Shown here one piece after another: positions 1 through 26,946 of a stretch of DNA of 32,000 nt. The first letter of the stretch is position 1. Each line of letters starts with the position of its first letter. Source of the stretch: Ferroglobus placidus DSM 10642 (GTDB taxonomy: Archaea > Halobacteriota > Archaeoglobi > Archaeoglobales > Archaeoglobaceae); contig NC_013849.1 of the NCBI RefSeq assembly GCF_000025505.1, forward strand, positions 2,130,001-2,162,000, written 5' to 3'. Position numbers and translations under genes: made by a program. The notes beneath the pieces were generated by a model that had not been told where the DNA came from, searched no databases, and saw nothing but the letters and a program-made list of their open reading frames with translations.

Positions 1-40
1 TAACGACATGTTTTTATTTCCCTACGCTTTTCCGCTTTGC

Positions 41-1291
41 ATGGGCAAAACCATTGCCGAGAAGATACTCAGCGAGAAAAGCGGCAAAGATGCTTATGCT
101 GGAGACATAGTTATTGCGAAAGTTGATAGAATTGCTTTGCAAGACGGAACTGCCCCTTTAGCAATAAAACAAGTTGAGAAGCTCGGATTGGAAGTTAAAG
201 CTGCAAAAATAACTCACTTTTTCGTCGACCACGCAGCTCCATCGCCGAGAAAGGAGCTTAGCAACGATCAGAAGCTAATTAAAGAGTTCGCCGAAAAGGT
301 AGGGGCGGAATTCAACAAACCGGGAGAGGGAATAATTCATCAGCTTATGGTTGAAAGATACGTAAATCCCGGAGATTTGATTGTTGGTGCAGATTCTCAC
401 ACTTGCACCTACGGAGCTCTTGGAGCTTTCGCCACCGGAATGGGATCGACGGACATTGCTATAGCGATGGCTCTGGGAAAGAACTGGTTCAGGGTTCCCG
501 AGAGCTTTAAAATAGTAGTCGAGGGAGAATTCCAGAAAGGAGTTTTCGCCAAAGATTTGATACTCTGGATAATCGGAGAGCTTGGAGTTGACGGAGCAAC
601 GTATAAAGCTCTGGAATTTCACGGAGAAACGATCGACAAGCTCGACATGGACTCGAGGCTGACAATTGCTAACATGGCCATAGAGTGCGGAGCTAAAGCT
701 GGGCTTTTCAAGAGCGACGAGGTCACGAAGAAGTTTTTGATGGAGAGGGGGAGAGGAGATAAGTTCAGGGAGATAAAGCCGGATGAGGATGCGGAATACG
801 AGAAGGAGATGTACTTCGACGTTTCGGATCTAACTCCGATTGTAGCTAAGCCTCATCAGGTTGATAACATAGCGAGAATCGACGAGGTGGAGGGAGTAAA
901 GGTTGATCAGGTTTTCGTGGGAACGTGCACCAACGGAAGGCTTTCGGATTTGGAAGTGGTCGCGAGGATTCTTAAGGGTAGAAAAGTTCACAAAGATGTC
1001 CGACTTCTCGTAGGTCCGGCAAGCAGGGAAGTTTACATGAAAGCTCTTGAAAGGGGATACATTCAGGAGATAATCAAAGCTGGAGGAGTAATTTTACCTC
1101 CGGGCTGCGGACCTTGCGTTGGAATTCACTTGGGAATTCTCGCTGACGGGGAGGTTTGCCTCTCAACCCAAAACAGAAACTTCAAAGGAAGAATGGGGAA
1201 TCCGAACGCTGAAATTTATCTCTCCTCACCAGCCACGGCTGCAGCTTCGGCAATAGAGGGGAAAATAGCGGATCCGAGAAAGTACCTCTAA
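41..1291 (+). CDS. leuC: Aconitase-family dehydratase large subunit (3-isopropylmalate / homoaconitate dehydratase, LeuC/HacA type)
   Basis: ORF 8..1291. The likely start is ATG 41 (MGKTIAEKIL). Aconitase-family blocks are present: GADSHT, VGTCTNGR, GCGPCVG, NRNFKGRMG. LeuC and HacA cannot be separated by eye. No small-subunit gene is adjacent. Confidence 0.9.
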   Translation: MGKTIAEKILSEKSGKDAYAGDIVIAKVDRIALQDGTAPLAIKQVEKLGLEVKAAKITHFFVDHAAPSPRKELSNDQKLIKEFAEKVGAEFNKPGEGIIHQLMVERYVNPGDLIVGADSHTCTYGALGAFATGMGSTDIAIAMALGKNWFRVPESFKIVVEGEFQKGVFAKDLILWIIGELGVDGATYKALEFHGETIDKLDMDSRLTIANMAIECGAKAGLFKSDEVTKKFLMERGRGDKFREIKPDEDAEYEKEMYFDVSDLTPIVAKPHQVDNIARIDEVEGVKVDQVFVGTCTNGRLSDLEVVARILKGRKVHKDVRLLVGPASREVYMKALERGYIQEIIKAGGVILPPGCGPCVGIHLGILADGEVCLSTQNRNFKGRMGNPNAEIYLSSPATAAASAIEGKIADPRKYL

Positions 1292-1292
1292 A

Positions 1293-1300
1293 TTTTTATT
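1293..1300 (+). promoter_or_regulatory. TATA-like box TTTTTATT upstream of the DRG GTPase gene
   Basis: The octamer is centred about 26-27 nt upstream of position 1323, and the ATG is at 1326. This fits a leaderless or near-leaderless archaeal promoter. The same octamer recurs at 12864-12871. Confidence 0.4.
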
Positions 1301-1325
1301 CCGATTAGTAATAAGCTGCTCGAAA

Positions 1326-2390
1326 ATGGACGTGGCTGAGGAGATCAGGAGGCTCGAAGAGGAAATAAGGAGAACGCCCTACAATAAAGCGACGGAACAT
1401 CACATAGGCAGGCTTAAAGCTAAGCTTGCGAGGCTTAGAGAAGAGGCTGAGAAGCAGAGGAGAAAGAAGAGCGGAGAAGCTTACGCGATAAAAAAGGAGG
1501 GAGACGCTACGGTCGTTTTGGTCGGCTACCCTTCTGTTGGAAAGTCTACTCTCCTCAACGCTTTAACCGGAGCGAAGAGCGAAGTGGCTGATTACGCTTT
1601 CACCACTCTTAAGCCAACTCCCGGAATGCTCGAATACAAAGGAGCGAAGATTCAGATTATAGACGTTCCCGGAGTAATAGAGGGAGCATCTCAGGGAAGA
1701 GGAAGGGGAAGGGAAATTCTCTCGGCTATAAGAGTCGCGGATCTTATTGTCATCGTGGCTGACGTTTTCAACGTTCACACCATCGATCTCGTTAAAAAAG
1801 AGCTTTACAACGCAGGTTTCAGATTGAACGAGAAGAAGCCGGAGGTTTACATAAAGAAGACAGTCACGGGAGGAATAAACGTAAAGACGACGGTCAAGCT
1901 GTCTTTGAGCGAGGAAACTATAAAGTCTATACTCAGGGAGTACAAGATCCACAGCGGAGAGGTTTTGATCAGAGAAGACGTGACGATAGACAGGCTTATC
2001 GACGCTATTCTCGGCAATAGAGTTTACGTTCCGGCGATAACTGTTGTGAACAAAATCGATCTCTATCCTGAGGCTGAAATTCCGAAAGACGCTATACCCA
2101 TTTCCGCTGAGAAGAGGATTAACCTCGACAAGCTCGTTGAGGAAATTTACAGAAAGCTCGAATTCATCAGAGTTTACCTCAAACCTCCGGGAGGAAAAGT
2201 AGAGGAGGAACCGATGATTCTTAGAAGAGGGGCTAAGGTTGAGGACGTCTGTAAAAGATTGCACAGAGACATGGTCGAGAACTTTAAGTACGCTAAAGTG
2301 TGGGGGAAGAGCGTAAAATTCGACGGGCAGAGGGTCGGATTGGATCACGTTCTCGAAGATGGAGATATTGTTACGATTTACGCCAAATAA
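1326..2390 (+). CDS. DRG/OBG-family GTPase with C-terminal TGS domain
   Basis: P-loop GYPSVGKST, then FTTL, DVPG and NKID motifs. It has an N-terminal coiled-coil segment and a TGS-like tail (LEDGDIVTIYAK). Confidence 0.9.
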   Translation: MDVAEEIRRLEEEIRRTPYNKATEHHIGRLKAKLARLREEAEKQRRKKSGEAYAIKKEGDATVVLVGYPSVGKSTLLNALTGAKSEVADYAFTTLKPTPGMLEYKGAKIQIIDVPGVIEGASQGRGRGREILSAIRVADLIVIVADVFNVHTIDLVKKELYNAGFRLNEKKPEVYIKKTVTGGINVKTTVKLSLSEETIKSILREYKIHSGEVLIREDVTIDRLIDAILGNRVYVPAITVVNKIDLYPEAEIPKDAIPISAEKRINLDKLVEEIYRKLEFIRVYLKPPGGKVEEEPMILRRGAKVEDVCKRLHRDMVENFKYAKVWGKSVKFDGQRVGLDHVLEDGDIVTIYAK

Positions 2391-3227
2391 TTAGGGTTTT
2401 AGCAGCTCTTTTATTATCGAAAGGGTTGAAATTTTGGCTATGTAAGGAACGCTTCCACCTCCAAGAACTACGACGAGCTTTTCGTCGCAGATTTTCTTAG
2501 CCGATTCCTTAACGATCTTCGCGATCTCCACGTATTCGTTGACCGTCAATCCTATGTCTCCGTAATCTCCCACGTGAGTGTCGTGTCCGAAGTACCAGAA
2601 AATCAAGTCTGGAGAGAACTTCTCGGCTCTATCGGCGAATTCTCTTACCAAGTCCACGTATTCCTTTCTACTCAGTCCGATGTAGCTTCTGTCTATCTTA
2701 AGTCCGTCCGGACTTTCGTAATCGCTTGCGCATATGCAGTAGTGCAAAACCTTGTCGTCATCCTTAACGAGCTCCCTCGTTCCATCTCCGTGATGAGCGT
2801 CGGTGTCGACGATGGCAAATTTAACATCGCCATACTTATCTCTTAAGTTTCTCATAGCCAAAATAACGTCGTTGAAGCAGCAATACCCCCAGAAGATTCT
2901 CTTTCCGGAGTGATGTCCTCCGGCACCTATGTAGCAAAAAGCGTTTCTCAACTCCCCTTCGTAAACCATCTCGGTTGCTTTAACAACTCCTCCGGCAGAG
3001 TGCCAGGCGGTGGAGCATAGAGGATCAGCCTTAACTCCTTCGAGTAGCTCCGGATCGTGGACTTTCAAAATTAACTCCTCGCTCACTTCCGGACATTCTA
3101 TCAACTTGAAGTTCTCGAAGCTCTTCAGCTCTTCGAATGCTTCTGGAAAATCTTTGAGTCTCGTGCCGACAGTTAAGTAGCTCCTTCTGCTAAAACTTAT
3201 GTGGTAAAATACTCCCGTCGGCTTCAC
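2391..3227 (-). CDS. Histone deacetylase / acetoin-utilisation (AcuC) / acetylpolyamine amidohydrolase family protein
   Basis: Motifs GAGGHHSGK and DTDAHHGDGT are present, plus a GGGS near the C-terminus. The track ORF runs to ATG 3341, but that N-terminus is hydrophobic, AT-rich and covers the neighbouring promoter. I prefer GTG 3227 (MKPTGVFYHISF); the start is uncertain. Confidence 0.8.
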   Translation of the reverse strand: MKPTGVFYHISFSRRSYLTVGTRLKDFPEAFEELKSFENFKLIECPEVSEELILKVHDPELLEGVKADPLCSTAWHSAGGVVKATEMVYEGELRNAFCYIGAGGHHSGKRIFWGYCCFNDVILAMRNLRDKYGDVKFAIVDTDAHHGDGTRELVKDDDKVLHYCICASDYESPDGLKIDRSYIGLSRKEYVDLVREFADRAEKFSPDLIFWYFGHDTHVGDYGDIGLTVNEYVEIAKIVKESAKKICDEKLVVVLGGGSVPYIAKISTLSIIKELLKP

Positions 3228-3318
3228 AAATTGAGTGAAGCTGCTGAAGTTAAAACGTTTTCCAAATACAAATTGTATTAAAATCACGATATAGTTTGCT
3301 AAAAAGGTTTTGAAAAAA

Positions 3319-3326
3319 TTTAAATT
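3319..3326 (+). promoter_or_regulatory. TATA-like box TTTAAATT for the CoA-transferase pair
   Basis: It lies in the AT-rich divergent intergenic region. The predicted TSS is near 3349, upstream of SD GGAGGTGG (3354-3361) and the in-frame TTG at 3368. Confidence 0.35.
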
Positions 3327-3367
3327 GTTTTCAATTACCATTGTTTACAGAGTGGAGGTGGTCAAGC

Positions 3368-4758
3368 TTGGAGAAGGACATCGAAAGTTTGCCTTACACC
3401 GAATTTATTAGAGAGCTTATGAACCCCGAAGAGATTTTCGAAAAGCCAGAGCCGCTCAAGGGGATAAGAGTTCTTGACGTTGGAACGTTAATTTTCGGAC
3501 CAATGGTCGCAACGTACCTGGCTGAGTTTGGAGCTGAAGTAATTCACGTGGAAATGCCGGGAAGAGGAGACACGATGAGACCCCTCACTCCTTTCGCAGA
3601 TTTCCACAAGGGCGTTCTGGCTGCCGGATTTGAGGCTACGAACAACAGCAAGTACCACGTTGCTATCGACATGAGAACTCCGGAAGGAAAGGAGCTGATT
3701 TACAGGCTTGTGAGGAAGTGCGACGTTCTTGTTGAAAATTACCGCCCAGGAACTCTTGACAGGTGGGGTCTCGGCTACAGACAGCTCAGCAAGATAAATC
3801 CGAGGCTTGTTTACATAAGCATGTCCGGATTCGGACAGTGGGGACCCTTGTTTACATAAGCATGTCCGGATTCGGACAGTGGGGACCCTGGACGATGAGA
3901 CCGAGTTACGATGCTGTTGCTCAGGCAACGTCTGGATTGATAGAAATCACCGGTTTTCCAGATGCTATCCCGCTAAAAGCCGGAGCTTGGATCGGCGACT
4001 ACTACGGAGCTTTGATGGGTGCTTTTGCTGTTATGGTAGCTTTGTACTGGAGGGAGAAGACCGGAGAAGGGCAGTACATCGACCATCCGCAGGCTGAAAA
4101 CTTGATTAGAAACATGGACTGGACTTGGCTTTACATATATCTGACTGGAAAGAACAGAGAGAGAACCGGAAACAGGGATGTGGCAATCGTTCCTTCTGAC
4201 ATCGTAAAAGTGAAGGACGGTTTTGTTGCCATCGCAGCCTTCAGCGAGGACGAGTTCATGGGGTTGTGTGAAGCTATGGGTAGGATGGACCTCTTCGAAA
4301 AATACGCGAGCATAGAGGAGAGGTTGAAGGAGGAGAATCAGAAAGTGATCTACGAAGCTTTGCACGAGTGGGCTAAGGATAAAAGCGTGAGCGAGATTAT
4401 AGAGAAGGCTGAGAAGTTCGGTTTTTCGGCTGCTAAAGTTATGAGTGCTAAGGATCAGTACGAAGACGAGCACTGGAGAGCGAGAAAATCAATCTGGATT
4501 CACGAAGACCCGATTTTCGGAGAGCTTGCTGAAGTTAGCCCGGTTCCAAAGCTGAGCGAAAGTCCCGGAAGAATAAAGTGGGCTGCTCGACCCAACGGAA
4601 TAGACAACGAGCACGTTTTCATAAGACTGCTCGGATTAACGAAGGAAGAGCTTGACGAGCTTTACAAGAAGGGCGTTATAGGAAAGTGGGACGAAAACGT
4701 GCCTTGGAGCTGTCCGCCTAAGGATTGGGATGGTAAGAGCGGTTTGTTCTATCCGTGA
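3368..4758 (+). pseudogene. Family III (CaiB/BaiF/Frc-type) CoA-transferase, frameshifted by a 41-bp tandem duplication
   Basis: ORFs 3341..3859 and 3763..4758 both encode LVYISMSGFGQWGP. Removing one repeat copy joins them into one frame collinear with the paralog at 4768..6072. The start is uncertain (TTG 3341, SD-preceded TTG 3368, or ATG 3419). Confidence 0.8.
3806..3887 (+). repeat. Perfect head-to-tail duplication of a 41-bp unit (3806-3846 and 3847-3887)
   Basis: The unit CTTGTTTACATAAGCATGTCCGGATTCGGACAGTGGGGACC was read twice with no mismatch. The next 2 nt (CT) continue the periodicity. Confidence 0.97.
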
Positions 4759-4767
4759 GGTGGTAGA

Positions 4768-6072
4768 ATGGAGGAAATGAGCTGGGCTGACTGGGCGAGG
4801 GAGAATACCGATCCGAGGAAAGCTCACCTAAAGCCGGAAGCTCTTGAAGATGTAGTCGTCCTCGACCTCAGCTACGGGAGTTTTGCCGGATTGTACGCTT
4901 CCTCTCTTTTAGCCGAGTACGGAGCTAAGGTAATAAGAATAGAGCCTCCGGAGGGAGATATAGCCAGAAAAATGACTCCCTTCGGGATAAAGCACAAAGA
5001 CACCGGTTTGGCTTACATAGTTGAAGGGAGGAACAAGTACCACATAACCCTCGACATAACTAAGGAGAAGGGAAGGAAGTTGCTCAAAAAACTCGTTAAA
5101 AAGGCTGACGTGCTGATAGAAACTTATCCCCCCGGCTACATGGACGAGCTCGGAATTGGCTACAGACAGCTGAGAAAGATAAATCCGCAGCTGATTTACT
5201 GTGCCATCCACAGCTTCGGACACTTCGGACCTAAAGCAAAGACGAAGATGAGGGACTACGATGTAATCGATCAGGCGATGGGCGGAATAGTGTGGACTAC
5301 CGGCATTCCGGAGGACTACGAGGAGTATCCAGAACACACGAGGGTTCCGACAAAGCTTGGAAACTGGATGGGGTGGTATGTAGGAGGAGGATTTGCCGCT
5401 TTCGGCATAATGGTAGCTTTGTTCTGGAGGAGGAAGAGCGGTAAGGGGCAGTTCATAGACGTCGCTCCTCCCGAGGCTATGGCGAAGGTGACGAACTACT
5501 ACATCCAGTACTACCACTACAGGAGGAAAGTCATAAACAGGGTTGCGAACTTCGACCCGGCTGTTTTCGTCTACACTTTAGCGAGAGCCAAGGATGGAAT
5601 GGTGTTCATGGCTGGGTTCAGCGACATAAACTTCTACGCCTTAACGCAGATAATAGGAAGACCTGATCTGAGGGAAAAGTATCCGACGATAAGGGAAAGG
5701 CTAACTCCGGAAAACTGGCCGGTTTGTCTGGCTGAGATAGAAAAGTGGAGCAGGGAAAGGACGGTGAAGGAGATAATCGATGCATTCTTGGCGTACAAGG
5801 GTGAAGGAACCGCCGTGGCTGGAGAGGTGCTTAAGCCGATAGAAACTTTCAAAGTTGAGAACTGGTGGGACAGGGGAATATTCCAGGAGATAGATGATCC
5901 AGAGTACGGAAAGCTTGTAGTACAAAGCGTAGTTGCGAAGTTCGAAAAAACTCCCGGAAGGATAAAGTGGGTCTGCAGAAGGGTTGGAGCCGACAACGAC
6001 TACATCTACAAGGAGTTCTTAGGTCTGAACAAGAGCGATTTGGAGGAGTTGAAGAAGGAAGGAGTTATCTAA
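4768..6072 (+). CDS. Family III CoA-transferase (CaiB/BaiF/Frc/alpha-methylacyl-CoA racemase family)
   Basis: It is collinear with the upstream paralog (VLDLSY..AG, GAKVIRIEPP, GIGYRQLRKINPQLIYC, YDVIDQAMGG). SD GAGGTGG precedes ATG 4768, overlapping the upstream stop at 4756-4758. Confidence 0.88.
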   Translation: MEEMSWADWARENTDPRKAHLKPEALEDVVVLDLSYGSFAGLYASSLLAEYGAKVIRIEPPEGDIARKMTPFGIKHKDTGLAYIVEGRNKYHITLDITKEKGRKLLKKLVKKADVLIETYPPGYMDELGIGYRQLRKINPQLIYCAIHSFGHFGPKAKTKMRDYDVIDQAMGGIVWTTGIPEDYEEYPEHTRVPTKLGNWMGWYVGGGFAAFGIMVALFWRRKSGKGQFIDVAPPEAMAKVTNYYIQYYHYRRKVINRVANFDPAVFVYTLARAKDGMVFMAGFSDINFYALTQIIGRPDLREKYPTIRERLTPENWPVCLAEIEKWSRERTVKEIIDAFLAYKGEGTAVAGEVLKPIETFKVENWWDRGIFQEIDDPEYGKLVVQSVVAKFEKTPGRIKWVCRRVGADNDYIYKEFLGLNKSDLEELKKEGVI

Positions 6073-7420
6073 CCTCCCTATTTTTTATGTTTTCTGCAGC
6101 AAGCACGAGCGAAGACACTATCAAAGCGTACACTCCGTAAAGCATCACTCCGGCAAGTTTGAATACGATCGCAGCTACAAATCCGGCAGCTATCGAAGCT
6201 CTCGCTCTTTTAATTCTCTCCGAAAAAACTCCGAGCGTGGCTGGGAGCAGGCAGAGGAGAATTGCCGAAGACATGACGGAAAGCTCGACTATGTAGCTAA
6301 GCCTGAAGTAGGCGAAGATTCCGACGATCACGGATAAGATTACCACGAAAATTTTTCCGTAGAAAACTCCCTCTTCCCTTAGAATGTCCCTCGAAATCAT
6401 CGATGCCAAGCTCAGAATTATGGAGTTTGCCGTCGTTATTGCAGCGGCTAAAATGCTTAGAGCTATAATCAATCCAGCATACTCTGGAATTTTGGTGATG
6501 AATACCGGAGTTACGTCGTCTCTGTAGCTAATCTCGGGAAAGTTTCCTTGGACGGTTGCTATTTTCAGAGTTATTCCCATGAAGGTTACGATAAAGGTGT
6601 AAATCAATCCGAAGAGTCCGAAGAGTACGACCATCCTCTTCAAATCTTTCTCAGACTTCGGAATGAAAACTCTCTGCACAACCTGCGGATTCGTTAAAGC
6701 GAAGAAGAACCACGGAACGGTCAGAGCGATGAATCTTTCGACCGTCCAAATTTTGTTCGGAACTTGAAGCAGAGAGCCGAGAGAAGAAGATTCTTCGAGA
6801 ACGTTTCCCTCAACAAAATTTAAAGCTAAGGCTAAAGCTAAAAAGCCGGCTAAAAGCATAATCACTCCTTGGACAGCATCCGTCCAAGCGACTCCCCTCA
6901 AACCACCTATCAAAGCCCAGAAGGCTATGAGGAAGACTGAAATAACCAAAGCGTTTTGAAAAGTCAAGCCGACGGTTTTTTCTAAAATCAACGAAACTCC
7001 GATGATTTGGGCGGAGGTGTAGGGAATAAGAGCTACAACCGGAATGAGGGAAGCGAGAATTCCCTCAGCTTTGCCGTACTTCTTAGATAACATTTCAGCT
7101 GGAGTGACGACTCCGTTCTCTTTTGCGAACCTCCACATCTTCGGAGCGAAATAGGAGAGGAGGAAGAGAGTACCGACTAAGTAGAAGAGTTCGAAAGCAG
7201 CTGCTCCCACGCCGGTGGCGTAGCTTAAGCCAACCAACCCGACCATCATAAAAGCCGAATATGTTGTTGCGGCATATGTTAAAGCCGATACAACTCCGCT
7301 CACGTTTCTGCCGGCTATGAAGTATTCCTCGTGAGTTCTGAACCCGTATTTTCTTGAGTAGATCGCTAAGGCTGTTCCGGCAATAATGTAAGCGATTAGA
7401 AGGATGTAAAAGCTATTCAA
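6065..7420 (-). CDS. Sodium:solute symporter family (SSF; PutP/PanF/MctP-like) transporter
   Basis: A 451-aa polytopic membrane protein with a typical SSF N-terminus (EEYFIAGRNVSG..SAFMMVG). The TTG start at 7420 is preceded by strong SD AGGAGGTG (complement of 7426-7433). Confidence 0.85.
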   Translation of the reverse strand: MNSFYILLIAYIIAGTALAIYSRKYGFRTHEEYFIAGRNVSGVVSALTYAATTYSAFMMVGLVGLSYATGVGAAAFELFYLVGTLFLLSYFAPKMWRFAKENGVVTPAEMLSKKYGKAEGILASLIPVVALIPYTSAQIIGVSLILEKTVGLTFQNALVISVFLIAFWALIGGLRGVAWTDAVQGVIMLLAGFLALALALNFVEGNVLEESSSLGSLLQVPNKIWTVERFIALTVPWFFFALTNPQVVQRVFIPKSEKDLKRMVVLFGLFGLIYTFIVTFMGITLKIATVQGNFPEISYRDDVTPVFITKIPEYAGLIIALSILAAAITTANSIILSLASMISRDILREEGVFYGKIFVVILSVIVGIFAYFRLSYIVELSVMSSAILLCLLPATLGVFSERIKRARASIAAGFVAAIVFKLAGVMLYGVYALIVSSLVLAAENIKNREVR

Positions 7421-17297: not shown

Positions 17298-18095
17298 TTA
17301 TCGTTGACTGAGTTTTCCAGTTCTGTAACCTTCGAGGTCGAGCAGCACAGCCTTAAATCCGAGGGATCTAAGCTTGGGAACTATCTTATCAACTATCTCT
17401 TTGTTTAAAAGCTTTTCAACCTCATCTTCGCCGACTTCTATGACCGCTCTACCGTCTATCTTCCTCACCCTAACCTGCCTAACTCCGGCAACTTCTATTA
17501 TGTGGTTTTCAGCTTCGTCCACCATTTTCAGCGAAACCTCGTCGATTGGTGTGTTGAACGGAATTCTCGAAGATAAACAAGCTACGCTCGGCTTATTCCA
17601 GAACGAGTAACCTTTCATTTTTGCTATTTCTCTAATTTCCTCCTTCGTAAAGCCGAAGATTGCCCAAGGACTGTAAACGTCTTCTAATTCTACTACCGCT
17701 CTGTATCCGGGTCTGTGCCCTTGCAGTTCGCTCGCGTTAGTTCCCTCGAAAACGGCTTCGTATCCTTCTTTTTCGGCGATTTTTTTCAGTGAAGTTAAAA
17801 CCATTCTCTTGCAGAAGTAGCATCTGTCCTCGGTGTTCCTAACGAAGTTCTCATCTTCAAGTTCGTTCAACTCGTGAAATCTGTGTTTCAGATTTAGCTC
17901 TCTCGCTATCCTTTCAGCATCTCTTATCTCCCTCGAAGGTGTTGTGGGGGAGATTATCGTTACAGCGAGAACTTCCGTAAGTTCGTTAGCCAGTCCGGCT
18001 AATGTCGAGCTGTCGACTCCTCCGCTGAATGCTACAACGACGCTTTCAAAATTCGAAATGAACTTTTCAAGTTTTTTGAGCTTTGCTTCGTTCAT
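17298..18095 (-). CDS. PP-loop ATP pyrophosphatase, LarE / TIGR00268-like sulfur transferase
   Basis: It has the PP-loop AFSGGVDSS and exactly three Cys (RCYFCK and VACLSSR). I prefer ATG 18095 (MNEAKLKKL) to TTG 18119. Confidence 0.75.
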   Translation of the reverse strand: MNEAKLKKLEKFISNFESVVVAFSGGVDSSTLAGLANELTEVLAVTIISPTTPSREIRDAERIARELNLKHRFHELNELEDENFVRNTEDRCYFCKRMVLTSLKKIAEKEGYEAVFEGTNASELQGHRPGYRAVVELEDVYSPWAIFGFTKEEIREIAKMKGYSFWNKPSVACLSSRIPFNTPIDEVSLKMVDEAENHIIEVAGVRQVRVRKIDGRAVIEVGEDEVEKLLNKEIVDKIVPKLRSLGFKAVLLDLEGYRTGKLSQR

Positions 18096-22716: not shown

Positions 22717-23223
22717 ATGCAGATGAGGGAGATGACGAAGAAGTCTTTGAGCGAAGCTTTTGCCGGAGAGAGCCAGGCGCACATGAGGTATCTGATATTT
22801 GCGCAGAAAGCGAGAGAGGAAGGATTCGAGAACGTGGCGAGGCTGTTCGAAGCAATAGCTTTTGCCGAATTCGTGCACGCGAGAAACCACCTCGAAGCTC
22901 TGGAGCTCGTTGGAGAAACGAAGGAAAACCTTCAAACGGCTATAAACGGTGAGACCTTCGAAGTTGACGAGATGTATCCGGCGTACAATGCAATAGCCGA
23001 GCTTCAGAACGAGGGGAGAGCGAAAAGAAGCATAAGGTACGCTCTTGAGGCTGAAAAAATACATGCGGCGCTGTATTCGAAGGCAAAGCAGGCGGTTGAG
23101 GAAGGAAAGGACGTTGAAGTGGGAGACATCTACATCTGCGAAGTCTGCGGATACACGAGCGAAAGCTTGCCAGATAGATGTCCGATTTGCGGAGCTACCA
23201 AAGACAAATTCAAAAAGTTTTAG
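22717..23223 (+). CDS. rbr: Rubrerythrin
   Basis: A ferritin-like diiron domain ([20 protein letters not shown]) is followed by a C-terminal rubredoxin-like CEVCGY...CPICG. The start is ambiguous among 22711 (TTG), 22717, 22723 and 22732 (ATGs). Confidence 0.9.
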
Positions 23224-23278
23224 CGAAACAGAAAGATTTTTACCTTACTAAATTTTTATTTAATACCGAGGTGATAAG

Positions 23279-23695
23279 ATGGTAAGCGAGAAGCTTAAAA
23301 GTTTGCTGAACGACGCTATAGCGAGGGAAATACAGGTTTCGATTCAGTACCTCTGGCAGCACGTTTTGGCAAAAGGCTTTGAAGGGGAAACCGTAAAAGG
23401 AAAGTTGAAGGAGATTGCCATAACAGAAATGAAGCATGCCGAGGCTATAGCCGAGAGGTTGGCTTATCTCGGAGGAACTCCCACGACGAAGCCAACGCCG
23501 ATTACGATAGGTAACACTGTAAGAGAAATGATAGAAATAGACAAAAAAGAGGAAGAGAAGGCAATAGAGCTCTACAAGGAGATAATAAAAGTGGCAAGAG
23601 AGGAAGGAGACATCACGACTGCGAGGCTTTTCGAGGAAATTCTCGCGGACGAAGAAGAACATCACGACTTCTTCTCTTCGGTGCTGGAGGGCTAA
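23279..23695 (+). CDS. Ferritin-like / bacterioferritin-family diiron protein
   Basis: It has a four-helix-bundle pattern with AREIQVSIQY, EMKHAE and ADEEEHHDFF. SD GAGGTGAT lies 5 nt upstream of the ATG. Confidence 0.8.
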   Translation: MVSEKLKSLLNDAIAREIQVSIQYLWQHVLAKGFEGETVKGKLKEIAITEMKHAEAIAERLAYLGGTPTTKPTPITIGNTVREMIEIDKKEEEKAIELYKEIIKVAREEGDITTARLFEEILADEEEHHDFFSSVLEG

Positions 23696-23700
23696 ATTGT

Positions 23701-24201
23701 ATGAAAACCGAGGGGAATTTAAAAGCTGCTTTCGCCGGAGAGAGTCAGGCGCACGTCAAATACTTAATTTTTGCAGAGCTGGCAAGAGAAAAGGGATTGA
23801 GAAATCTCGCAAGGGTTTTCGAAGCCTTCGCTTTTTCAGAGTTCGTCCACGCGAAAAACCACTTCAAAAACTTAGAAAGCGTTGAAGACCCGGTAAAAGC
23901 TCTCGACGAAGCGATTAAGGGAGAGACTTACGAAGTGGAAGAGATGTATCCGAAGTTCTACGAGGAAGCAATAAAGGAAAAGGAGAAGAAAGCTGCCACG
24001 TCCTTTAGGTGGGCGATGGAAACGGAGAAAAAGCATGCAGAGATTTACAAAGAGTTGAAAATACTTGTCGAAAGCGGGAGAGACAAAGCTTACGACAAGA
24101 AAATCTACGTTTGCCCGGTTTGCGGATACATCTTCGTCGAAACACCTCCGGACGTCTGTCCTATTTGCAGCGTCGGAAAAGAGAAGTTCAAAGAGTTTTA
24201 G
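23701..24201 (+). CDS. rbr: Rubrerythrin (second paralog)
   Basis: It contains [20 protein letters not shown] and the C-terminal CPVCGY...CPICS. Confidence 0.9.
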   Translation: MKTEGNLKAAFAGESQAHVKYLIFAELAREKGLRNLARVFEAFAFSEFVHAKNHFKNLESVEDPVKALDEAIKGETYEVEEMYPKFYEEAIKEKEKKAATSFRWAMETEKKHAEIYKELKILVESGRDKAYDKKIYVCPVCGYIFVETPPDVCPICSVGKEKFKEF

Positions 24202-25015: not shown

Positions 25016-25097
25016 GCCGGGGTTGCAGAGAGGCACTGCGCCGGCCTTGAGAGCCGGTGCCCGCAAGGGCTCCTGGGTTCAAGTCCCAGCCCCGGCG
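25016..25097 (+). tRNA. tRNA-Ser (anticodon UGA), class II, no encoded CCA
   Basis: Hand-folded cloverleaf: acceptor GCCGGGG/CCCCGGC, D stem GCAG/CTGC, anticodon stem CCGGC/GCCGG. The anticodon loop is CTTGAGA, the 15-nt variable arm has a GCCC/GGGC stem, the T arm is CTGGG-TTCAAGT-CCCAG, and the discriminator is G. Confidence 0.93.
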
Positions 25098-25925: not shown

Positions 25926-25992
25926 AACGTCGAAATAGACTTCTGGAAAGTTTATTTAAAAGAGGGAAAAACAGGATATGTGGGTGGGATAC

Positions 25993-26946
25993 ATGTGCGA
26001 ACTCTTCGGTCTATGCTCCAACAAAATCGTTGGAATCAGCTTCTCGTGGCGCGGTTTCGTTAGAAGAGGTGCAAAACACAGATCTGGGTGGGGCGTTGGC
26101 TGGTACGTCGAGAACGAGAGAGGAGAACGGTATGCAGCTCTGGTCAAAGAGCCGAGACCTTCGGTCAGTAGCCCCGTTGCGGAGCTTTTGAGAAGGGGAA
26201 TTAGAAGTAACATCGTTGTCAGCCATGTTAGGCTCGCAACCGAAGGGGATCCGAAGTACGTAAACACTCACCTATTCGTGAGACCTTTCGGAGAAGATGA
26301 ATGGATTTTCGCCCACAACGGAGATGTTTCGGAAATAAAAGGTTACAGACTGGAGAGATTTCATCCGATTGGTGATACGGATTCGGAATACGCTTTCTGC
26401 TACATCTTAGATAATCTCCCGAGTTATGCGAGGCTGGGAGATTTGTTTAGGATGTTGTTCGAGCTCGCGCAAGAGATTGCAGATTACGGCACCTTCAACT
26501 TCTTGATGAGCAACGGAAGATACCTCTTCGCCCACACAAACAACGGCAGATTGCACTACCTTCTGAGGCATCCTCCTCACGCCGGAAAGGTGAGAATATT
26601 TGGAGATGACGACTACCAAGTATCTCTCGGAGAAGTGAAAAGTGCTGACGAATACGCTGCACTTCTTGCTACAGTCCCGCTGACCGACGAGAACTGGATA
26701 AGGATGGAGAAAGGAAGGTTATACGTTTTCAGAGATGGAGATCTCGTTCTCGTAATTAGCTCCGACGGTTTTAAGCCTATGCTGAATGATAAAGAACTGG
26801 AGATTTTGAGAGTTGTTAGAACTGCTCCGAGCTCTTTAAAGCTCTCTGAGATAGCGGACAGTATTGGGGACGACATCGAGAGGAACGTACAGAATCGTCA
26901 GGAGCCTCGTTCGCAGACGCTATTTAAAGCAACACTCACACGATAG
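25993..26946 (+). CDS. Class II (Ntn) glutamine amidotransferase-like protein (YafJ/GATase_4 type) with truncated C-terminal HTH
   Basis: The start MCELFG places the nucleophile Cys right after Met. Other Ntn-fold blocks are HVRLAT, FAHNG and GDTDSEY. The C-terminal LEILRVVRTAPSSLKLSEIADSIG looks like the first two helices of a winged helix. Confidence 0.75.
   Translation: MCELFGLCSNKIVGISFSWRGFVRRGAKHRSGWGVGWYVENERGERYAALVKEPRPSVSSPVAELLRRGIRSNIVVSHVRLATEGDPKYVNTHLFVRPFGEDEWIFAHNGDVSEIKGYRLERFHPIGDTDSEYAFCYILDNLPSYARLGDLFRMLFELAQEIADYGTFNFLMSNGRYLFAHTNNGRLHYLLRHPPHAGKVRIFGDDDYQVSLGEVKSADEYAALLATVPLTDENWIRMEKGRLYVFRDGDLVLVISSDGFKPMLNDKELEILRVVRTAPSSLKLSEIADSIGDDIERNVQNRQEPRSQTLFKATLTR

Follow-up and report, generated by a model that had tools for sequence, protein, structure and literature searches.

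A recent out-of-frame 41-bp tandem duplication in a family III CoA-transferase gene of Ferroglobus placidus

A family III CoA-transferase gene (hereafter gene A) is interrupted in the reference genome of Ferroglobus placidus AEDII12DO (DSM 10642) by an exact tandem duplication of 41 bp, which divides it into two ORFs. A 32-kb stretch of the chromosome (the window, whose positions are used throughout) was compared with public sequencing runs and with related genomes, and the results point to a real, very recent and spontaneous loss-of-function duplication in the lineage of the sequenced genome, a reading to which we give a probability of roughly 0.87. It is an ordinary recent mutation of its kind, unsurprising in itself but of use to annotators and to those who work with the strain.

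The two adjacent 'CoA-transferase' CDSs of the F. placidus reference are halves of one gene, and the reference strain probably does not have an enzyme that strong selection maintains in its close relatives. This bears on metabolic reconstruction and on transcriptome and proteome work in a hyperthermophilic model iron reducer and degrader of aromatic compounds, and is relevant to comparisons among laboratory stocks. In addition, the locus provides a clean natural case of microhomology-flanked tandem duplication in a hyperthermophilic archaeon, and points to a pair of Asp-bearing and Asp-less family III CoA-transferase genes resembling BbsEF. Searches of the published literature for F. placidus together with frameshift or CoA transferase returned nothing on this locus, and searches by SRA run accession found nothing.

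Sequence and Extent of the Duplication

The 41-nt unit (CTTGTTTACATAAGCATGTCCGGATTCGGACAGTGGGGACC) is repeated head to tail without a single mismatch, and the identity extends 2 nt (CT) to the right and 0 nt to the left, which makes the end-points of the duplication ambiguous by 2 nt (Table 1). Analysis of the window with TRF gave this array a score of 168 (period 41, 2.0 copies, 100%), the runner-up array anywhere in the window scoring 51, and a gap-free repeat search recovered the same 41-bp pair; by chance, about 7e-21 perfect tandem repeats of 41 nt would be expected in 32 kb. These comparisons bear out the exact duplication described in an earlier note on this DNA. The small hairpin within the unit has a folding energy of -6.2 kcal/mol (DNA, 37 °C; z = -2.5) and is imperfect or disrupted in the closest relative (locus L003). 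A 12/13 match between positions 3337-3349 and the junction was also considered and was judged to be due to chance. The G+C content of the window is 45.1%, and that of the F. placidus AEDII12DO chromosome (DSM 10642, CP001899; 2,196,266 bp) is 44.1% (PMC3236036).

Table 1. Features of the disrupted locus and of B-type genes in other loci; positions refer to the window unless a locus is named.
Feature	Position	Strand	Remarks
Shine-Dalgarno sequence of gene A	3354-3361	+	GGAGGTGG, good match, ahead of TTG 3368
N-terminal fragment of A	3368-3859	+	TTG start; 163 aa, ending in GQWGPLFT and stop
Copy 1 of the 41-bp unit	3806-3846	+	encodes LVYISMSGFGQWGP, residues 147-160 of the intact protein
Copy 2 (inserted extra unit)	3847-3887	+	shifts the frame by +2; contains the premature TAA 3857-3859
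Junction of copies 1 and 2			GGACAGTGGGGACC / CTTGTTTACATAAGC
Junction in longer context			…GGGGACC / CTTGTTTACA…
CT microhomology, 2 nt	3888-3889	+	matches the first two bases of the unit, 3806-3807
Small hairpin in the unit	3822-3837; again 3863-3878	+	TGTCCG-GATT-CGGACA, 6 bp
C-terminal fragment of A	3838-4758	+	public CDS from GTG 3838 (inside copy 1), 306 aa
Codon of Asp197	3997-3999	+	GAC, predicted catalytic nucleophile
Shine-Dalgarno sequence of gene B	4757-4763	+	GAGGTGG, overlaps the TGA stop of A
Gene B (paralog of A)	4768-6072	+	intact family III CoA-transferase, 434 aa; PF02515 1-366
B-type genes outside Archaeoglobales	L018 5359-6687 and 8058-9338; L020 5387-6709

The Two Fragments and the Repaired Frame

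The upstream ORF ends at the TAA within copy 2, with a product terminating in LVYISMSGFGQWGPLFT, and the peptide LVYISMSGFGQWGPWTMRPSYD is read again in the downstream frame; translation thus agreed with the earlier observation that the repeat peptide is present in both ORFs. When one copy was deleted in silico, a single ORF of 449 aa encoding a family III CoA-transferase was obtained, which matched the PF02515 profile over positions 1-365 of 366 (E 4e-111; 372 bits, cut-off 23.3) and was collinear with the paralogous gene B at 38% identity, as had been proposed for the repaired gene. The N-terminal and C-terminal fragments cover positions 1-127 and 119-365 of the same profile, respectively. 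The N-terminal fragment comprises residues 1-160, that is, the five-stranded alpha/beta N-domain without Asp197.

In the public record of the source genome, the locus is represented by two separate CDSs (163 aa and 306 aa) with a 22-nt overlap and not by a single pseudogene, and exact-sequence look-ups identified both fragments among the public proteins of NCBI and UniRef. Gene callers applied to Logan contigs begin the C-terminal fragment at ATG 3862 instead (298 aa), which sits 2 nt past the TAA. Shine-Dalgarno sequences were sought before both GTG 3838 and ATG 3862 and were found at neither. A scan for sigma-70 promoters and terminators, which has no meaning in an archaeon, yielded nothing above shuffled sequences. 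We also rejected programmed frameshifting, since the insertion occurs in no relative and a +1/-2 shift would merely add the duplicated 14-aa segment.

Support for the Second Copy in Public Sequencing Runs

Logan assemblies are de Bruijn graphs with k=31. The presence of the second copy was examined indirectly on the public Logan contigs of individual runs, and not on raw reads. For a tandem repeat of 41(+2) bp at this k, the left contig is predicted to end at 3835 (the last 31-mer with G3805, or G3805 plus 30) and the right contig to start at 3860 (the first 31-mer containing G3890, or G3890 minus 30). Contigs from SRR3923786, SRR019237, and SRR019238 end at 3835, and contigs from SRR3923786, SRR019237, and SRR071437 start at 3860; two of these broken contigs are each common to one further sample. 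At least four public runs, 454-like error-prone and cleaner ones alike, therefore show breaks at the predicted branch points. As a control, the 30.5-kb contig ERR15087784_21863, which has a single copy and an intact gene, is unbroken through the site, which implies that the 43-mer is otherwise unique in the genome and that no other copy of it causes the breaks.

These breaks bear directly on whether the true genome is single-copy and the second copy a product of the assembler, an option that the earlier note had raised. Such an error is conceivable in a genome whose assembly combined 454, Illumina, and 'fake read' data and whose repeats were finished with Dupfinisher (PMC3236036), and one public run (ERR15087784) does carry a single copy. 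However, a single-copy genome yields no branch, as the contig of that very run illustrates, whereas in at least four runs the independent de Bruijn assemblies break exactly at 3835 and 3860. Moreover, the F. placidus genome data consist of 454 Titanium reads with a mean length of 292 nt plus Illumina reads (PMC3236036), so that single 454 reads spanned the 82-bp array. Given the exact position of the breaks and the length of the reads, an assembly artefact is very unlikely and can be regarded as effectively excluded.

The contig breaks show that k-mers from the junction occur and are not rare, which does not fix the share of two-copy molecules. A single JGI DNA preparation may lie behind most or all of the runs with the duplication, in which case these runs would be technical and not biological replicates. 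In a separate observation, contig SRR019237_270 (L011) differs from window positions 1-3835 by a 1-nt indel, and, relative to the other runs, the genes for a GTPase and a DHH/S1 protein are split or shortened in it; this looks like a 454-type homopolymer error and agrees with these being the genome project's original 454 runs.

Ancestral State and Age of the Duplication

Over about 25 kb, the ERR15087784 contig differs from the window at three places, namely the 41-bp unit, T/C at 7277, and C/T at 17671. The first of the two SNPs is synonymous and lies in a sodium:solute symporter gene; the orthologues have A, A, and T at this third codon position (again synonymous), which is uninformative for polarising it. 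As SRR3923786 carries the window base at 7277, ERR15087784 represents a slightly different lineage (~8e-5 differences per site). Two SNPs in 25 kb exceed the expectation for subcultures of one stock, and this run probably comes from a sister strain or an environmental population. When the comparison was extended via window positions 25978-26946, only a 987-bp contig from another run matched.

Outside the insertion, gene A is 100% identical to the intact allele, and copy 2 is missing both from the ERR15087784 contig and from all orthologues. The intact 449-aa protein was found in a collection of 15 billion proteins only on that contig (30,518 bp), and an exact-pattern scan of JGI metagenome contigs for the left flank followed by the unit and CT gave 0 hits. 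Gene A is intact and single-copy (446-449 aa) at six of the seven related Archaeoglobales loci, which belong to a Ferroglobus sp. MAG, two uncultured Archaeoglobi MAGs, two Geoglobus MAGs, and Archaeoglobus sp. JdFR-32, and in the relatives with an intact gene the 14 duplicated residues hardly vary. The nearest other genome is the 'Ferroglobus sp.' MAG, with ~87.5% DNA identity and 98% protein identity. The dN/dS values of gene A against the two closest relatives are 0.012 and 0.035, with equally low values on either side of the break, and gene A is the best conserved gene in its neighbourhood; judging from these ratios (0.01-0.04), it is under strong purifying selection in the relatives.

Taken together, the near-identical single-copy contig, the intact relatives, and the low dN/dS indicate that the single-copy state is ancestral and functional. 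The duplication postdates the split from a 99.99%-identical lineage and has undergone no secondary decay; a gene whose frame is broken where its orthologues are intact, and which shows no other degradation, has the character of a recent pseudogene. The zero divergence of the copies had been taken in the earlier note as a sign of a very recent event, a view that the near-identical single-copy contig and the single-copy relatives support. An old, fixed split would have left two ORFs with diverged copies in related genomes, and a comparison of the orthologous loci found single copies and no such structure.

The same data bear on the idea that the culture held both one-copy and two-copy cells and that the assembler took the two-copy allele. 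The graph topology expected from such a mixture is identical to that of a pure duplication, and perfect tandem repeats collapse at appreciable rates. Nevertheless, direct evidence for a mixture is absent, and the run with the single-copy contig also differs at two SNPs, which assigns it to a different lineage and not to the same culture. Of the population heterogeneity that had been suggested, the difference in alleles is therefore found between near-identical lineages, and a mixture within one culture is a minor, rather unlikely possibility.

Apart from the six intact loci, the MAG of Archaeoglobales archaeon B5_G16 (L008, positions 2050-3950) has a gene A cut down to residues ~255-449, which borders directly on a gene for an AMP-forming acyl-CoA synthetase on the opposite strand, and a gene B broken into ORFs of 326 aa and 68 aa. 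Either the A/B pair has decayed independently in this lineage, or the MAG contains errors.

Enzyme Family and Catalytic Aspartate

The best PDB sequence matches of the repaired protein are Brucella CaiB/BaiF, human SUGCT, formyl-CoA transferases, YfdE, and BbsEF (E 1e-56 to 1e-44), and its more than 2,000 homologues bear generic names only. Among the NCBIfam equivalogs, it falls far under every cut-off (the best score being 247 bits versus 700), so that no substrate specificity can be assigned from them. The stretch around the active site (105-116 residues) could be aligned without any change in length to Frc 93-197; this ungapped alignment places Asp168 at Frc position 140 and Asp197 (WIGD197YYG) at Frc Asp169. 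Asp197 was also aligned to residue 178 of BbsEF chain B. The titles of PDB entries ('Asp169 to Ala/Ser/Glu', 'CaiB D169A', and 'BbsEF D178-CoA adduct') name these counterparts as mutated or adduct-forming residues. Asp197 is invariant in 44 homologues, as is Asp168. The break had previously been placed just upstream of the catalytic aspartate, which was located in a 'YD' segment (Asp168); the position of the break holds and the residue does not, the predicted nucleophile being Asp197. Since the break is still upstream of Asp197, the functional conclusion stands.

In the AlphaFold model of a 91%-identical orthologue (monomer, pLDDT 77.7), the duplicated segment corresponds to the fifth strand of the N-domain (E148-153) and the following loop, and Asp197 is situated at the start of a long helix (195-218). 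Comparison of this monomer with SUGCT, BbsEF, Frc, and CaiB by Foldseek gave a probability of 1.00 and TM scores of 0.55-0.66. The homodimeric enzymes Frc/YfdW, SUGCT, and CaiB resemble A in the full-length PF02515 match, the predicted monomer fold, and the conserved nucleophile Asp, and differ from it in that A has a conserved Asp-less partner gene.

A Conserved Pair of Asp-Bearing and Asp-Less Genes

Gene B starts 9 nt downstream of A. It has Trp in place of Asp197 of A, together with a 9-aa insertion just upstream, and both features are kept in all eight Archaeoglobales orthologues of B (8/8). With regard to membership of PF02515, A shows both the full-length match and the nucleophile equivalent to Asp169 of Frc/YfdW/CaiB, whereas B does not have the latter. 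Adjacency of A (Asp) and B (Trp) was observed at seven Archaeoglobales loci, on a vent metagenome contig with two tandem pairs (L018), and in Desulfacinum hydrothermale (L020). In the loci examined, B-type genes (Trp and a 9-10-aa insertion) are always directly downstream of an Asp-bearing A-type gene, and the two types form separate similarity groups (51-70% identity within and 36-40% between them). The A/B pair appears to represent a widespread two-subunit transferase.

The pair was compared with BbsEF, the succinyl-CoA:(R)-benzylsuccinate CoA-transferase (PDB 9fn0, 9fol), which likewise consists of two paralogous family III subunits encoded by adjacent genes. As in BbsEF, the nucleophile Asp is found in only one of the two adjacent paralogs: Asp178 of BbsEF chain B (seen as the D178-CoA adduct in 9fol) is the counterpart of Asp197 in A, and chain A has Tyr171 at the nucleophile site, where gene B has Trp, a similarly aromatic residue. 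Sequence identity between BbsEF and A/B is only ~25-29%, and the A/B complex is a presumed one. Unlike the situation in BbsEF, the genes near A/B include a deacetylase-family gene and a sodium:solute symporter, and none of a toluene or benzylsuccinate pathway. By analogy, B is probably a non-catalytic partner subunit, and the conserved adjacency and the resemblance to BbsEF suggest that A and B would be subunits of a single enzyme, with catalysis confined to A.

Proposed Mechanism and Functional Consequences

End-points that share only CT are typical of replication slippage or of template switching at microhomology, and one of these processes most likely produced the duplication between two CT dinucleotides spaced by 41 nt; the hairpin in the unit may possibly have facilitated it. 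The extra 41 nt would have been inserted after codon 160 of the 449-aa gene, and, because 41 mod 3 is 2, the reading frame is shifted. Translation from the native TTG would be expected to stop at the TAA in copy 2, giving a 163-aa piece from which the nucleophile Asp197, the small domain, and the C-terminal part are missing. The rest of the gene, 298-306 codons, would have no ribosome-binding site of its own and would specify a C-terminal piece without the N-domain. The lesion would accordingly rank as a pseudogenising mutation that has accumulated no further decay so far. As A is the only member of the pair with the catalytic Asp and B has Trp, the presumed heteromeric enzyme as a whole most likely loses its activity through the frameshift in A.

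Tandem duplication is a listed class in the spontaneous mutation spectra of the hyperthermophilic archaeon Sulfolobus acidocaldarius (PMC7785828). The pyrE spectra of this organism and mutation studies in bacteria include the same kind of event, i.e., short, perfect, head-to-tail, out-of-frame, and revertible duplications with minimal microhomology that inactivate a gene. The proposed mechanism is the same; the pyrE mutants were selected by an assay, whereas the F. placidus case was found in a deposited reference genome. Exact reversion through slippage or recombination would be possible, as for any perfect tandem repeat, and revertants should be expected in large populations.

This reversibility invites the question of a programmed or selected on/off switch (contingency locus) that toggles expression of the transferase, an idea that was also contained in the earlier note. 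The lesion could be reversed precisely, and both alleles are present in near-identical genomes; in phase-variable contingency loci, copy number likewise alters the frame and is reversible in principle. However, such loci consist of many copies of 1-8-nt units that are kept during evolution, whereas here a 41-nt unit is present in merely two copies within a conserved coding segment, without any simple-sequence tract and in no relative. All seven related loci and ERR15087784 have exactly one copy, in place of a tract that is maintained across strains and varies in copy number, and the microhomology is just 2 nt. Neither a recombinase nor other machinery occurs in the list of nearby genes, and the pattern is as expected from random mutation. 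A programmed switch thus finds no support in the single-copy relatives and is improbable.

It is conceivable that termination at the TAA is followed by reinitiation at ATG 3862, as the two are only 2 nt apart, yielding the C-terminal piece. A split enzyme might then arise, in which the pieces 1-160 and 152-449 reassemble, perhaps on B; together they hold every residue, and, in the orthologue AlphaFold model, the break falls in the loop that follows the fifth strand (E148-153), with low confidence for loop residues 157-166. Several points argue against it. No relative has a split A, save the 5'-truncated and decayed copy of the B5_G16 MAG, and both possible starts, ATG 3862 and GTG 3838, are without a Shine-Dalgarno sequence. 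In addition, the duplicated strand and loop would compete with themselves, loop 154-166 contains invariant residues (G154, G156, W158, G159, R164, and S166), and the event is too recent for compensatory adaptation. A functional split enzyme is hence highly improbable. Similarly, it is unlikely that the locus is a standing, interconverting polymorphism of one and two copies, which would amount to a de facto switch of the catalytic subunit, or that the fragments are active after reinitiation at TAA-GC-ATG. A simple loss of function by a spontaneous duplication remains the preferred reading.

Other Observations in the Window

A tRNA gene at 25016-25097 is the only Rfam match in the window. The Logan contigs of both ERR15087784 and SRR019238 end at 25042, inside this gene, which suggests that the genome contains part of the tRNA sequence at another place as well. 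Besides, three ORFs at 23023-24201 form a small paralog cluster, in which two rubrerythrin-family genes of 166 aa each flank a ferritin/rubrerythrin-like gene of 138 aa.
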